Origin: a virus
Lineage: Duplodnaviria > Heunggongvirae > Uroviricota > Caudoviricetes
Reading direction: 5' to 3' (one strand)
Virus record (IMG/VR): IMGVR_UViG_2534682078_000033
Length of the DNA stretch: 8,767 bases
In this document: positions 1 through 6,000 of the stretch, one piece after another
How positions within the stretch are numbered: position 1 is the stretch's first letter
How the letters are laid out: the number at the start of each line of letters is the position of its first letter
Made by a program: the position numbers

Positions 1-3000
1 TTGCTGAGTTTTGGATCGCTTGATGATGTTTCCCTGGCTGATGCCAGAAAACGCCGTAGCGAGTACAGGGCGTTAATTCGTGCCGGAACTGACCCGCAGG
101 ACCACGAGAGGCAAAAAAGAGAGACAGAGGCCCGAAGACAAGGGAACACGTTCGAAAATGTGGCAACAGCATGGTACCAGGTGAAAATCAGCCAGAATCT
201 GGCCCCCAATACGATTAAAGACATCTGGCGATCGCTGGAAAAATATGTATTCCCGTTCATCGGCAACACGCCAATAGACACCCTGACCGCTCGCAGGTTT
301 GTTGAGGTGCTTACCCCCATCAAGGAACGTGGCAACCTGGAAACGCTCAAGCGAGTTTTACAGCGTGTAAATGAGGTAATGGATTACGCCGCCAATAGTG
401 GGATGATTGATGCCAATCCGGCTATGAATGTGCGTAAGGCGTTCCCCTCCCCTGTAAAAAAACATATGCCAACAATCCGCCCCGAACAGCTGCCGGAGCT
501 TATGCAGGCTTTATCAGTATCGGCAACAGAACGGCAGACCAGATTACTGATTGAATGGCAGTTACTGACCGTAACCCGTCCCGTTGAAGCATCGTCGGCA
601 CGCTGGGAAGAAATCGACATGGAGGCGCAACGCTGGACCATACCCGCCGGACGCATGAAGATGCGCCGCGACCACGTTATCCCGCTTTGTGACCAGGCTA
701 TGGCAGTGCTGGAGGCTATGAAACCAATCAGCCACCACCGCGATTATGTTTTCCCAAGTCTGAAAGACCCACGGCAGCCGATGAACAGCCAGACAGCAAA
801 CGCAGCATTACGACGCATGGGGTTCGCTGGCGTGCTGGTGTCTCATGGATTACGCGCCATATTCAGCACAGCAGCGAACGAGGAAGGATTCGAGCCGGAC
901 GTAATCGAGGCGGCACTTGCCCACGTCGACACCAACGAAGTCAGACGGGCATACAACCGGAGCAACTACATAGAAAAACGCGTGGTGCTTATGCGCTGGT
1001 GGGGCGAATTTGTCGAGGCTGCGGCGACGGGCGTAACCCTCGCCAGTGGTAAAAGGGGTATCCGAGCCGTTTAGCTGTACAGAAAACCAGTAAAAACTAC
1101 GAAAACCATTTAAAACCGTCGTATAATTGCATCACATTTAACGACGAGGCCTTGAAAAATGAAACCGTTAAGATGCAAACAAATTTCAGATGCAATTGCG
1201 ACGGGCTGCAACTGGCCCTGATGGTTCAGCATGAATTTTGGTCAACCTACGATCCGGAGGACAGAACGACGGCCCCATCAAAAAAACAGGTAGTAGATTT
1301 CCTGGTATCCCGTGGAGCTTCCAGAAATCTGGCTGTAAGTATTGATAAGGTTGTACGTCCGGCATCCATGAAGACCGGAGGCAGGCCCAAAAAATGGCGG
1401 TAACAATCCTGAAAGCGGCAGAAATGCCGCTTTTTTTATAAATCCCTTTCAAATCATCAATATAAAAAACGGTGTATACCGTTTAAAAACGGTGAGTACT
1501 GTTTTTCCCTGCATCCGATGATTTACCGTATTTCTCACCGGAATACACCGGATTAATGAGGTAAATCACGATGGAAGCAATCAAAAAAGTCATCTTTCGC
1601 CAGGAAGTAAAAAAACTTATCCATATTAAGGCAGACAGCACGCTGCAAAGCATGATCAACGCCGGAGAATTCCCGCAGGGTTTTCGTGTCGGTTTGCGCC
1701 GTCGCGGATGGTATGAGGAAGACGTAATCGCATGGATGAAAGAACGCGAACAAGAAGCGCGCGGAACGACCGCTTAACATATATAGGGCAAATGATGAAC
1801 ATAAAAAAAGCGGCCCCGAAATGGAGCCACCTTTCTGAACAATTAACCCGCTGCGCCGTATGTGTCAACAATCATAAGCCTGGGCATGATAACCGCGATC
1901 AGGCTGGTGGGCAATTATCTTGCTTGTTGGGGCCGTATTGTGCTGCCATTTTCATCCGTTCAGAACGTGAATATTTTTTTAGAAACTCATCAAGGACAAA
2001 AGCGCATGGTGCGAATCTTTCTGATTCATGCTCGAGCGCCATATTTTCGTGCTCTCTGTTCGTTTTTTGCGATGGTGTATTGGTTGATTCTTTATTGGTC
2101 ATTGTGTGTACCTGTAAAGCAATGCGCCGTAGTACCTCACGCCACGGCGCTGATGTTTTTTATCCTTTGGGTTCAATACCGCGTTGCTGTAATTCTTTTC
2201 GGAGTACTCGCTTGATCCAGGTGGCTAAAGAAGTGTCACCGTCTGCTTTCGCTGCCTCTTCAAGTTGTGCTCTGAATTCTTCTGGTAGCCGCATTTGGTA
2301 TGGAGGCGATCGCTTTTCCAATGGTGTTGACATGGTAATTACCCTTAATTACTATAGTTACATGGTAATTACCATTGTACTTACCGTTATACAAAAAACA
2401 ACGCCCCGCAGTGGTGGCTCACATACGGGGCGTCTAACCAAACCATTAATTGAGGTAACGATTATGGCTATAAAAGAGCATAGCTTACTCTTTATACACA
2501 CACAAACGCCCCGGAAACGGAATAATCCGTTTCATAGCTCCGTTTTGTGTACTCATCCTGGCGGGCGATTCTTACGGGACTTTAGCCGCCGTGGGCAGCT
2601 TGCTAAAAATGCCTCCAACGCGAATAGTCCAGGTTTCATTTCTATCGGTATTAGTTGGATATTCAGAGGATTAGCCAGTTCGGCTTCAAGGCGAGCACAG
2701 GTTTCTAACTGCCTTTGCCGAATGATTTCATCTTCTTGCGTCTGCGTGTCTTGTATTGGTGATAGTGTGTTGTTGGTCATAGTACTGCCCTGTAAAGCAA
2801 TGCGCCGTAGTACCTCACACCACGGCGCTGATAGTGATTATTCTGATTCTTTGGCCTTGCGGCGCTGGAGTTCTTCACGTGCGACAGTGACGAGCTGCCC
2901 GATCTCCTCGGCGGCTTTGATTCCGAGTTTTTCCACCTGCGCCAGTGCATTGAGCGAAGAAATCAGGAGGTTTTCTCCGCTTCCTTCTGCCTGGCGGCGG

Positions 3001-6000
3001 GCGATTTCACCGCGCATGGCGGTTACTATGAATCCGGCGTTGCTTTCACCGTCCAGTTTTACGGATTCCATGCCTTCAATAACATCATGCGGGATCCGAG
3101 CTGTCAGTGATTGTGATTTTGCGTTTTTTGAACCTGTAGCCATCTGTAATCCTCTCAATGAAAGTGTAAGACAATATACACATAAAAAGTCTTACATAAA
3201 AGCATTGACATGTAAGCCACCTATAAATAAAGTTACTTACACCTTGTTAATGCAAGGTGCAGAAACGACGAAACCCCGCACTGTAGGAGCAGTAACGGGG
3301 CTTCTAACCACCAACGATAACGAGAGTATCGAGGTAGCTATGAGAAATCATACCACACACCCGCAAGGGCGGGACTCGCACAACCTGAATAAATACATTT
3401 GGCGTTTTATCGCCCTGAGCACTGCACAACCGCGCGTGATTACCATTGAGGCCACCAGCGAACAGGAAGCACGCCTGCAATCCCCGGCTGGCTGCGTGAT
3501 GGTATTCGCTGCCCGTATTCGTCAGGGGGTAGGCTTATGAGCCAGGAAATCACACTACAACAGGCAGCAGAACGCGCCCACCAAATCGAAGTTATTTGCG
3601 CACTGGCAGAGGATTACCCAAGCATGATGACCGACAGAGAATCAGGGGCAATCATCAGCTTACTTAAACGCCTTAGCGGTGAGGTCTGCGTATTCCTGAT
3701 CGATGAACAGGAAAGAAGAACGCTTATTTCTAACGAAAAAAATGCGGAGGGGTACATGTGCAATAAAACCACACCGGACGCAGCCGCCGCGCTCACTACG
3801 CTGATACACGCACTTATTGATATTGAATGCACGGCAGAGCTTGCGCAGGGAGAAGAACAGAAAGACCGGACACAGTTCGCCCTGGAATGTATCCGATACA
3901 TCGCAACGCGGTCGCTGAATGACGCTAAAAATATTCTTGTTGCTGATTGTGAAAATGGGGGGGGGTTATGCGTGATGATCGTTTTAATTCCCTGAAACAA
4001 GAATTTTCCGGCGTTCCTGATGATGCGGCTGATGCGCTTTCGTCAATGCCAGAACTTATTAGAGCGGCTTTTTTCTTACTTTCCACGAGAGAATATAAAT
4101 CAACGGGACTTGATGTACTGAATATCGCCGCCGATTATGCGGAATATGTGGCAGAGGCGCGTTACAGAAGAAAATTTCCTGAGGATGTAAGCCATGCGTG
4201 ATATTTATCTTGAAACAATAGACCGCGCATCACTTGCACTTTCTCACAGTGAAAACATGATGGAAATATTGCGGATGTGCCTTGAATCCTTTGGCGATAA
4301 TGAACGTAATGCAAAAAAACGCGGATTATTACATCATTAATAACGCTTCTTGAGTCTGTAATAAATGAGTTGCAGGAAATAGAGACATTGCACGACAGAT
4401 ATAACGAACAGCACACCGGAGAATAAAAATAATGAAACTTAAATATTCTGGCTTAACTGCCAGTGGCAACACTCACCCTAAATTTACGCGCGGTGATATT
4501 TACCGCGACCAGTACGGCGGCACGGTAATGATTAAGGGCGTGGCGGGACGGTGCGTAACTTACCGCCGTGAAGGTTACGAATATGATTGCGTGATGCCTG
4601 TTTATCAGTTCCGGCGTGATTTTTCTCTGGTACAGACCGCGCCGCATAACGTGCCCACCAGCAACGCCAGGGCACGGGCAAACATCCAGAAGCTGAAAAC
4701 CATGATTAACGGATTCAGGGGCAAGAAATGAAAAGCGCACCGAACTTAAAAAAACAGCCTTACGACAAGATGACCGAAGTCATCATTTTTGCGGGTAGTG
4801 ATGCGTGGGCACATGCGAAACAGTGGCAGGAACAGGACGGGCGACTGGCTGGCGATAATGTGCCTCCCGTTGTGCTGGCTGATGATCAACTGGATGAACT
4901 GGCAGACCTGAGAATCATCGACGAGGGGCGCTATTGTGTCCGGCTGTACAAGGCAGGCCACATCAGGCCATCAAATATTAATGCCATTGCGCACAAGCTG
5001 GCGGCGGCGGGTGTAACTGATGCGAATTATTACCCCGAAGGGATGCACAGCCAGAAGCGGGAGAACTGGCGCGAATATCTGGAACGGGAGCGGGGGAAAA
5101 AGCCAGGGGAAGAAAAACACCACCAGCGAAAAACCACGCTACCAATGAGCGTGGGATCTGCCGGATACGACACACAACTTGATTACGTGGTTAAGGGGAT
5201 TATTCCGGCGGTATCGCTGTGCAGCATATACGGGGCGAGCGGTTCATATAAATCGTTCCTTGCGGGTTCGTGGGCGTGTCACGTTTCCACGGGCCGCCAG
5301 TGGGGAGGCCGCAGGGTGGCGCATGGCGCTGTTCTCTATGTGGTTGGTGAAGGCGGTATCGGCGTTCCGCGTCGTGTAAAAGCCTGGGAGGTTGTGCACG
5401 GTGAGCAGGTGAAAAATCTGTATCTGGTAAACCGTCCCATCTTTCCGGCTGCCCCGCTTGATGTTGAGGAAATGGTTATCGCTGCCCGTCAGGTGGAACG
5501 GGAAACGGGTAAACCGGTTCGAATGATTATTCTGGATACGCTGGCGCGCTGCTTTGGCGGCAATGATGAAAATGATTCCCGTGATATGGGGGCGTTTATC
5601 CGTGGGTGTGACGAACTGAAACGGCGCACAGGGGCAACGGTGCTGGTGGTTCACCATTCCGGCAAGGATGAAACAAAGGGGGCGCGTGGTTCCAGTGCAT
5701 TTCGTGCATCACTGGACGCCGAATACCGGATACGCAGGGAGGACGCAGGCAGCGAAGCGCTGGTTATCTCATGTACCAAAATGAAGGACGCGGAGGAACT
5801 CAAAGAAGCAGCATATGACTTACGCGTGGTGGAGCTTTTTACCGACGCTGACGGGGAGTTAATCACGTCGCTGGTGGTGGTGGATAAGCCGCGCCCTCCC
5901 GTTGAACTGGAGCGCATCGAGGAGGCAGGGAACAAGACGGAGAATCACGCCGCGCTATGGCAGTGCATCAGAACACGAACAGCACACGGGGAGGCGTGCA

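Follow-up and report, generated by a model that had tools for sequence, protein, structure and literature searches.

A 602-codon eta-like open reading frame, antisense to ribbon-helix-helix repressor-type genes, is kept free of stop codons in diverged chromosomal islands

Eta-type frames and the present locus

In the phage satellite P4, a constitutive promoter lies within the eta gene, and the transcript that starts there is terminated through interactions of the CI and seqA RNAs (PMC10111431, citing Forti et al. 1999); P4 immunity through premature termination has also been described independently (PMC4825925). Kil is a truncated form of Eta, and full-length Eta is translated only when the upstream late promoter fires (PMC10111431); translation of eta from this promoter prevents the immunity-specific termination (PMC10111431, citing Forti et al. 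1999). Here we describe an open reading frame (ORF) with a comparable layout in an 8,767-nucleotide stretch of viral DNA (IMG/VR record IMGVR_UViG_2534682078_000033, Caudoviricetes; hereafter the window). This plus-strand frame, called F0 throughout, runs from the end of an alpA-type gene to an Icd-like/Kil-type gene, and selection keeps it free of stop codons in many diverged islands. In our view its 602 codons are probably the satellite counterpart of P4 eta, in which the act of translation, and not the protein, is selected.

Judged by its gene content (Phage_integrase, alpA, an AAA_25 RepA-type helicase, the small terminase Terminase_2 and Phage_capsid), the island is a phage satellite of the phage-inducible chromosomal island (PICI) or cf-PICI type. 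A chromosomal island of Escherichia coli E2863 matches the window with 100% identity; the window ends within the capsid gene, and portal, protease and TerL were not seen. As P4 eta (L094 8812..8168, 214 codons) starts 49 nt inside ORF88 (Phage_AlpA, 73 bits), so F0 starts 46 nt inside the 3' end of an alpA/vis homolog, its ATG 1732 lying in the same motif, GCATGGATG, that is common to P4 ORF88/eta; the product begins with MDGRTHCRT in P4 and with MDERTRTRS here. Both frames contain an internal promoter (predicted in the window) and finish in a Kil/Icd-like part of about 65 amino acids that is in frame, has its own ribosome-binding site and precedes a replication operon. Profile NF033153 matches P4 Eta at residues 161-208 (73 bits) and the window product at residues 555-598 (64 bits), where the Icd-like gene constitutes the in-frame last 66 codons. 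The P4 ORF contains C4 (74.9 bits), isrK (60.8 bits) and c4-a1b1, which served as a positive control for the Rfam search, its residues 37-161 match Phage_ASH (PF10554) at 82 bits, and no antisense genes are known in it, whereas the ORF of the window carries neither the CI/C4 and seqA/isrK RNAs nor the ASH part and is about half antisense to four minus-strand genes, two of them of the ribbon-helix-helix (RHH) repressor type with their own operator-like sites. The Phage_ASH match on P4 Eta (L094 8330-8702) covers the DNA of the isrK/seqA and C4/CI RNAs, and part of the signal of this protein family may reflect conserved RNA genes. On sequence, the antisense-repressor and P4-type architectures are directly linked by strain 2013C-3513 (L095), with the same integrase and alpA, in which a single 409-codon plus-strand ORF passes antisense through homologs of the two genes called A2 and A1 below, then through isrK (66 bits) and C4 (77.6 bits), into an Icd-like part. 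The homology between window and P4 rests on the profile matches, the shared start context and this hybrid.

A second related arrangement is the immI region of P1 and P7, c4-icd-ant, where the small icd is reportedly a translated leader whose translation averts Rho-dependent termination before the downstream genes, as Biere et al. in 1992 and Riedel et al. in 1993 are said to have found. There too a structured RNA reportedly lies just upstream of the icd ribosome-binding site; unlike immI, the window has no detected C4 RNA or a1/b1 targets, and the genes downstream are replication genes, not ant. We know of no long upstream in-frame ORF in P1. Neuhaus, Scherer and Ardern are said to have proposed antisense overlapping genes in E. 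coli; like these and like shadow ORFs in general, F0 is a long ORF antisense to real genes with third codon positions facing each other. Unlike ordinary shadow ORFs, which are by-products within one gene, it spans four genes, two promoter regions and a terminator and is selected for openness, and unlike the proposed overlapping genes its protein sequence is apparently unconstrained. Within Gram-negative PICIs and HE-PICIs, a "Bro zone" of genes for Bro-network proteins has been described, some PICI Bro genes carrying C4 and isrK (PMC10111431), and accounts of cf-PICIs list "AntA/AntB, YlcI/YnfO, Icd" as separate accessory genes (PMC13612085). F0 occupies the same position, between int/alpA and the replication genes, and its homologs have AntA, Bro-N and HNH_3/AP2 neighbours, but those accounts (PMC10111431, PMC13612085) do not describe one maintained ORF antisense through ylcI, and in the literature searched we found no description of a maintained eta-like frame, 350-820 codons long, that lies opposite functional genes of the ylcI type. 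The nested eta/kil principle is known; what appears to be new is that an eta-like frame, reaching 819 codons, runs antisense over functional RHH repressor cassettes.

Openness of F0 in homologous islands

The earlier note on this DNA had listed the plus-strand ORF of 602 codons, and the stop-free run proves to be even longer, 607 codons (1717-3537) between a TGA at 1714 and the TGA at 3538-3540. It is the longest among the six frames of the window; the runners-up, of 472 and 357 codons, are both real genes. As the same note had remarked, the translation is rich in Ser, Arg and Cys (80, 51 and 26 of 602 residues).

The evidence that this run is maintained comes from 91 homologous loci, which were gathered through the YlcI protein alone, blind to F0, from Enterobacter, Pantoea, Photorhabdus, Yersinia, Xenorhabdus, Lelliottia and others, and which form 31 clusters at 97% identity. 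F0 is open over the entire ylcI homolog in 29 of the 31 clusters, in runs of 190-819 codons, and the first five of these genera are among them. Per lineage, the probability of an open frame given the YlcI protein is only 0.15-0.74; ten of the 11 species-level loci (L003-L013) are open, and the product of their probabilities is about 2.5e-5. The frames differ sharply in the divergent promoter region and leader, 170 nt that adjoin ylcI on its right: over the 31 cluster representatives F0 has 5 stops there, as against 144 and 143 in the other plus frames and 69-107 in the minus frames. On a neighbour-joining tree of the promoter segment, Fitch counting gives 2 events of stop gain or loss for F0 and 42 and 57 for the other plus frames. 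When intergenic types less than 75% identical are compared, ten of 12 are open, each with a probability of 0.012-0.052 and jointly near 1e-16 if they are independent.

Two details of these alignments concern the phase. The motif TCTAACC, which follows the first leader hairpin, is read in two phases across lineages and never in the phase that would give TAA, and in those lineages whose F0 and icd differ in phase, F0 still remains open until about 20 nt before the icd ATG. Selection thus keeps stops out of F0 in many diverged islands, those of other genera included; conservation of the open frame in homologs was one of the checks that the earlier note had proposed.

That note had also suggested looking for constraint across homologous islands, and an OLGenie-style analysis was made on 29 unique ylcI genes. 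For ylcI, dNN/dSN was 0.26 (95% confidence interval 0.16-0.45) and dNS/dSS was 0.13 (0.05-0.25), and the gene is thus under strong purifying selection, also at sites that are synonymous in F0. For F0, dNN/dNS was 1.63 (0.80-4.6) and dSN/dSS was 0.83 (0.51-1.22), and no purifying selection on its amino-acid sequence over ylcI was found in these 29 genes. Translations of the intergenic parts of F0 match between lineages only at DNA signals, namely the -35 and -10 elements, the hairpin and the Shine-Dalgarno (SD) sequence. Per-codon-position entropy in a heterogeneous 64-sequence alignment had little power, as even icd is weakly periodic there, and showed no clear period of three among intergenic substitutions; the subset of close relatives holds too few intergenic substitutions, and its icd counts are contaminated by non-homologous replacements. 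Outside the Icd part the long ORF has no Pfam match at E<=0.1, and an AlphaFold2 model of the long product from a shallow alignment of 25 full-length relatives has a mean pLDDT (predicted local distance difference test) of 25.4, with no residue above 70. F0 stays open while its sequence drifts.

Modules and signals crossed by the frame

The features within and around the ORF are collected in Table 1. The long ORF contains two tandem modules, each with a leftward RHH gene followed by a small gene, a divergent control region, a two-hairpin leader and an ATG. Roughly 650 nt of it are uncovered by any minus-strand gene. The earlier note had counted five minus-strand ORFs of one shared phase. The phase stands, since the starts at 1871, 2102, 2294, 2780 and 3158 all equal 2 mod 3 and that of the plus-strand ORF equals 1 mod 3, which places codon position 3 opposite position 3; the count falls to four real genes, because 2294 is an internal ATG of ORF 2160..2333 and ORF 1656..1871, which overlaps alpA, has no family match and is unannotated, is probably spurious.

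Table 1. Features of the window in and next to the long plus-strand ORF
Feature	Coordinates	Strand	Basis and remarks
alpA-type helix-turn-helix (HTH) regulator/excisionase gene	1571..1777	+	weak Pfam Phage_AlpA/HTH_17; PHROG excisionase; annotated by the Prokaryotic Genome Annotation Pipeline (PGAP)
eta-like read-through ORF	1732..3540	+	602 codons; alpA to Icd-like/Kil gene; openness kept in homologs
terminator-like hairpin and U-run, end of leftward A1-A2 operon	1803..1832	-	sequence; terminator part of weak Rfam alignment; inverted repeat I1
A2, 67 amino acids, phrog_21027	1899..2102	-	PGAP; fully antisense-embedded in long ORF
75-nt direct repeat, copy 1 (RHH stop, hairpin GCGCCGT..ACGGCGC, start of downstream gene)	2092..2166		83% identical copies
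A1, 57-amino-acid Arc/RHH-type DNA-binding protein, putative module A repressor	2160..2333	-	PGAP coding sequence; PHROG 228 E=5e-7; Pfam Arc E=0.008
module A control region	2327..2466	+	promoter-like 2327-2355; GGTAATTACC operator-like palindromes 2332-2375; two-hairpin leader 2399-2463; ATG 2464
B2, 75 amino acids, downstream of ylcI	2553..2780	-	ORF call; unannotated by PGAP
75-nt direct repeat, copy 2	2770..2844		hairpin terminator-like on - strand (2828-2802)
ylcI/ynfO-family RHH gene, 101 amino acids	2838..3143	-	PGAP; NF041551 71.2 bits (cutoff 30); phrog_6522 190 bits; fully antisense-embedded
module B divergent promoter/operator region	3144..3249		+ promoter-like TTGACA-17-TAAAGT 3205-3233; four TGTAAG half-sites 3165-3241
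structured leader	3262..3342	+	hairpin 1 3273-3301, TCTAACC, hairpin 2 3313-3331 abutting icd SD, ATG 3340
Icd-like/Kil-type gene, 66 amino acids	3340..3540	+	NF033153 phage_ICD_like 69 bits; PGAP coding sequence; own SD (GAGG) and ATG

Regarding the two RHH genes, A1 scores 20.1 bits with YlcI_YnfO_N (NF041551), under the curated cutoff of 30 bits, and an Arc-like assignment (phrog_228) fits it better; PDB sequence searches with YlcI and A1 were uninformative. A2 is the partner usually found downstream of the RHH gene in this family and has homologs downstream of ylcI in many loci, whereas B2 has no family match in Pfam, NCBI and PHROG profile searches and a 65% identical homolog in L033. Each RHH gene and its small partner are separated by a conserved spacer of 57 nt, which lies within the 75-nt direct repeat with its hairpin. 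The two copies of this repeat are 678 nt apart, that is 226 codons, and strain ESM1.4 corresponds to the window minus exactly this module of 678 bp, joined within the repeat at copy 1; gain or loss of the module therefore keeps the reading frame. The repeat looks like an attenuator between the genes of a pair and, at the same time, a site at which recombination shuffles modules. Among L025, L033, L039 and L042, several have, right of ylcI, a mosaic icd region made of an icd N-terminus, an inserted segment and a second icd-like part, and others have two ylcI-type modules, as does L039 with its run of 819 codons. That mosaics and double modules all form one open frame points to frequent frame-preserving recombination at the kil/icd start.

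The control region of module A parallels those of module B and of the relative L095, and its ATG 2464 is a kil/icd-like start that has been truncated by module B. In module B, the region 3144-3249 is stop-free in F0 only; the half-sites, 4 of the 8 TGTAAG copies of the window, are arranged in + - + - orientation around the divergent promoters. The promoter-like site 3205-3233 lies inside the long ORF, about 110 nt before ATG 3340, and its -35 and -10 elements are conserved across lineages, where they appear in F0 as the motifs LTC and YTL/HTH. The GGTAATTACC palindromes in module A and the TGTAAG sites in module B suggest two tandem RHH repressors with separate specificities. Compensatory changes occur in 8 of the 14 leader pairs, and hairpin 2 (5 bp) holds or abuts the SD in the homologs L003-L093. 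No Rfam family was found for the window, leader included, either in a scan of the whole window or in one of 2330-3560; the two-hairpin leader may represent a regulatory RNA element that belongs to Icd-like operons and has escaped curation. A weak partial likeness of the leader to R1162 antisense RNA was seen at E=3.4. At its other end the long ORF reads across the terminator-like element behind A2.

The starts of the long ORF resemble those of genes. Across lineages they are coupled to an upstream plus-strand gene through ATGA, TGATG, 8-nt overlaps, or an SD and ATG 9-19 nt past the stop, and this upstream gene codes for AlpA or HTH_17, or for the Bro-zone proteins AntA, Bro-N or HNH_3+AP2. 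The icd stop overlaps the next start (ATGA at 3537-3540), and the plus-strand genes that follow overlap in a chain up to repA. An Icd extended at its N-terminus from ATG 3250, hinted at by phrog_6196, was rejected as a general account: the ATG is ATA or GTG in relatives, and it would leave the openness upstream of the promoter unexplained.

Readings of the open frame

Selection against stops that acts in the absence of constraint on amino acids is what is expected if translation itself matters, as in the eta-type reading that we favour. In a quiescent island, only short transcripts would be made from the internal promoter, with the RHH proteins acting as repressors. A helper phage would then activate a promoter upstream, on the int/alpA side, and ribosomes would move from alpA into the long ORF, behind an RNA polymerase that crosses the antisense repressor cassettes as well as the promoters and the hairpins of the leader, until icd is reached; from there ATGA coupling would carry translation on to the replication genes. 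Unbroken translation would protect the transcript of approximately 1.8 kb from Rho-dependent termination, and the read-through may also interfere with leftward repressor expression. Where P4 has its RNA immunity segment and ASH part, the ORF in this lineage crosses one or two opposite-strand RHH repressor cassettes. We give about an even chance to the more general proposal of a "conduit ORF", a frame of 350-820 codons whose sole reason for staying open is to let ribosomes accompany RNA polymerase across the whole immunity region of a satellite. It would lie opposite functional repressor genes with their promoters and operators, and opposite a terminator, and would gain or lose modules in multiples of three.

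If this is true, the conduit ORF would be a clear example in nature of translation itself being selected, on the kilobase scale and with an unconstrained sequence, and one and the same read-through would both escape Rho and collide with repressor expression, a built-in commitment switch for induction of the island. The anti-termination logic of P4 eta/kil, little cited since 1999, would extend to widespread PICI and cf-PICI satellites whose immunity modules are protein (RHH) and not RNA. A long antisense ORF in E. coli that does not look like a protein can evidently be selected for openness without a conserved product, which bears on the debate about antisense overlapping genes and on annotation, given that PGAP variously reports a 602-amino-acid "Icd-like protein", pseudogene fragments or nothing. 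The locus also offers a clean experimental system, in which stops that leave the proteins of the embedded genes unchanged would be expected to uncouple translation and so to expose Rho-dependent polarity and repressor interference while a satellite is being induced.

Several points weigh against the eta-type reading. Transcription and translation of the plus strand across 1732-3340, the inducible promoter upstream and any Rho-dependent terminator are all things that we infer. ATG 1732 is preceded by a weak SD-like GGAAGA only, and strain ESM1.4 does not have this ATG, so that another start is needed there. A stop in F0 within ylcI or the promoter region occurs in 4 of the 31 clusters (L007, L008, L038 and L061), and the feature is thus dispensable or decaying in some islands. 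Neither C4, isrK nor c4-a1b1 was found in the window, even at E<=10 on 2330-3560, and Phage_ASH was not found in the window ORF at a Pfam threshold of E<=0.1; immunity here, if there is any, therefore works differently from P4, presumably by protein repressors. Finally, a BLASTP comparison between the long ORF and P4 Eta yielded nothing significant outside the Icd part detected by profiles, and the match of the Kil part is itself non-significant.

The alternative that survives best, although we regard it as unlikely, accepts that F0 is translated and gives it a selected function other than protection from Rho: ribosomes may melt the two leader hairpins and so feed icd and the coupled replication genes, or a translation-coupled polymerase may override convergent transcription of ylcI and A1 and the repressor-bound operators, silencing the repressors. 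Hairpin 2, which holds or abuts the icd SD and covaries, fits such a role, as do the lineages in which an out-of-phase F0 ends within reinitiation distance of the icd ATG and the operator-like sites and minus-strand promoters inside the ORF. The documented effect of translating P4 eta, however, is to prevent termination (PMC10111431), and these functions are compatible with anti-termination, from which analysis of sequences cannot separate them.

We hold it to be still less probable that F0 is a true antisense overlapping gene with a functional product of 602 amino acids, in which a long N-terminal extension precedes an Icd-like domain. The ORF is maintained with gene-like coupled starts, PGAP calls it a protein in many genomes, NCBI lists the exact product under the name "Icd-like protein" (117 members), full-length relatives are as little as 63% identical to it, and the part of P4 Eta that is not Kil matches a Pfam family, Phage_ASH. 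Against this, F0 over ylcI shows no constraint at the amino-acid level, substitutions in the intergenic parts lack clear 3-periodicity, length (about 200 to 819 codons) and content vary by module swaps, and the Ser/Arg/Cys-rich product has no Pfam domain outside Icd and a very low mean pLDDT on its shallow alignment. Of the real constraint that the earlier note had considered, in the form of an overlapping or ancestral long gene, the part that stands is that selection keeps the frame open; an ordinary conserved-protein gene it is not.

It is very improbable that chance and codon periodicity produced the run, by an alignment of four same-phase genes with intergenic pieces that happen to be stop-free. 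Long shadow ORFs are tolerated best in the frame in which third positions face each other, as stops in it need the codon pairs NNY-TAY or NNT-CAN on the sense strand. For this reason openness over each gene is unremarkable: with the minus-strand protein fixed and synonymous codons permuted, the antisense frame is open with a probability of 0.68 for A2 and of 0.16, 0.48 and 0.43 for the other three genes. The conserved 57-nt spacer, moreover, is a unit that fixes the relative phase of paired genes. To this extent, the codon periodicity invoked in the earlier note explains part of the run; it does not explain the roughly 650 nt without a minus-strand gene, nor the avoidance of T-ending codons. 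The segments without such a gene are the deciding ones: dinucleotide shuffles left the frame open there with P=0.008 (2334-2552) and P=0.005 (3144-3339). Shuffling, a kind of check that the note had proposed, does not reproduce the run. The equivalent antisense frame of other island genes has 1.98 stops per 100 codons, so that 6.0 stops would be expected over the four genes, and none occurs (P=0.0024); none of their 24 Tyr, His and Gln codons is preceded by a T-ending codon. The amino-acid composition of these genes was ruled out as the cause, as their content of Tyr, His and Gln is ordinary. What refutes chance is the comparison of homologs, with its stop counts, its few gain and loss events and its diverged intergenic types in loci that are not near-clonal (identity down to 50% for ylcI and 47% for icd). 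Chance and codon periodicity are thus rejected, stops are selectively excluded from F0, and the suspicion that a run of this length is unlikely to be accidental was well founded.

That the small minus-strand ORFs are spurious and the long plus-strand ORF is the sole real gene deserves next to no credence: B2 is unannotated and without a family match and PGAP calls the long ORF in place of the small genes in some assemblies, but ylcI matches two profiles (71 and 190 bits) and has a dNS/dSS of 0.13, which already contradicts the idea for this gene, A1 matches Arc-like repressors, and each RHH gene faces its own operator-like repeats.

The annotations themselves vary in RefSeq. The 602-amino-acid "Icd-like protein" is found in some assemblies, E2863 has only the 66-amino-acid gene and a pseudogene fragment in F0 (window 2767-2865; L001 2768-2866), and on the strand opposite the small genes ESM1.4 (L002 1793-2272) and 2013C-3513 (L095 2793-3308, 3462-3800) carry pseudogenes named "Icd-like" or "ash family"; none of the annotations includes ORF B2 (2553-2780). 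Around alpA, a 14-nt perfect inverted repeat, GCCGCTTTTTTTAT / ATAAAAAAAGCGGC (1426-1439 / 1801-1814), flanks the gene within two terminator-like elements. Just upstream of alpA, a 20-nt unit that contains a palindrome, AAAAACGGTGTATACCGTTT, occurs twice in tandem at 1465-1504; the two copies are a candidate binding site at a promoter that would match the role of P4 P_LL.

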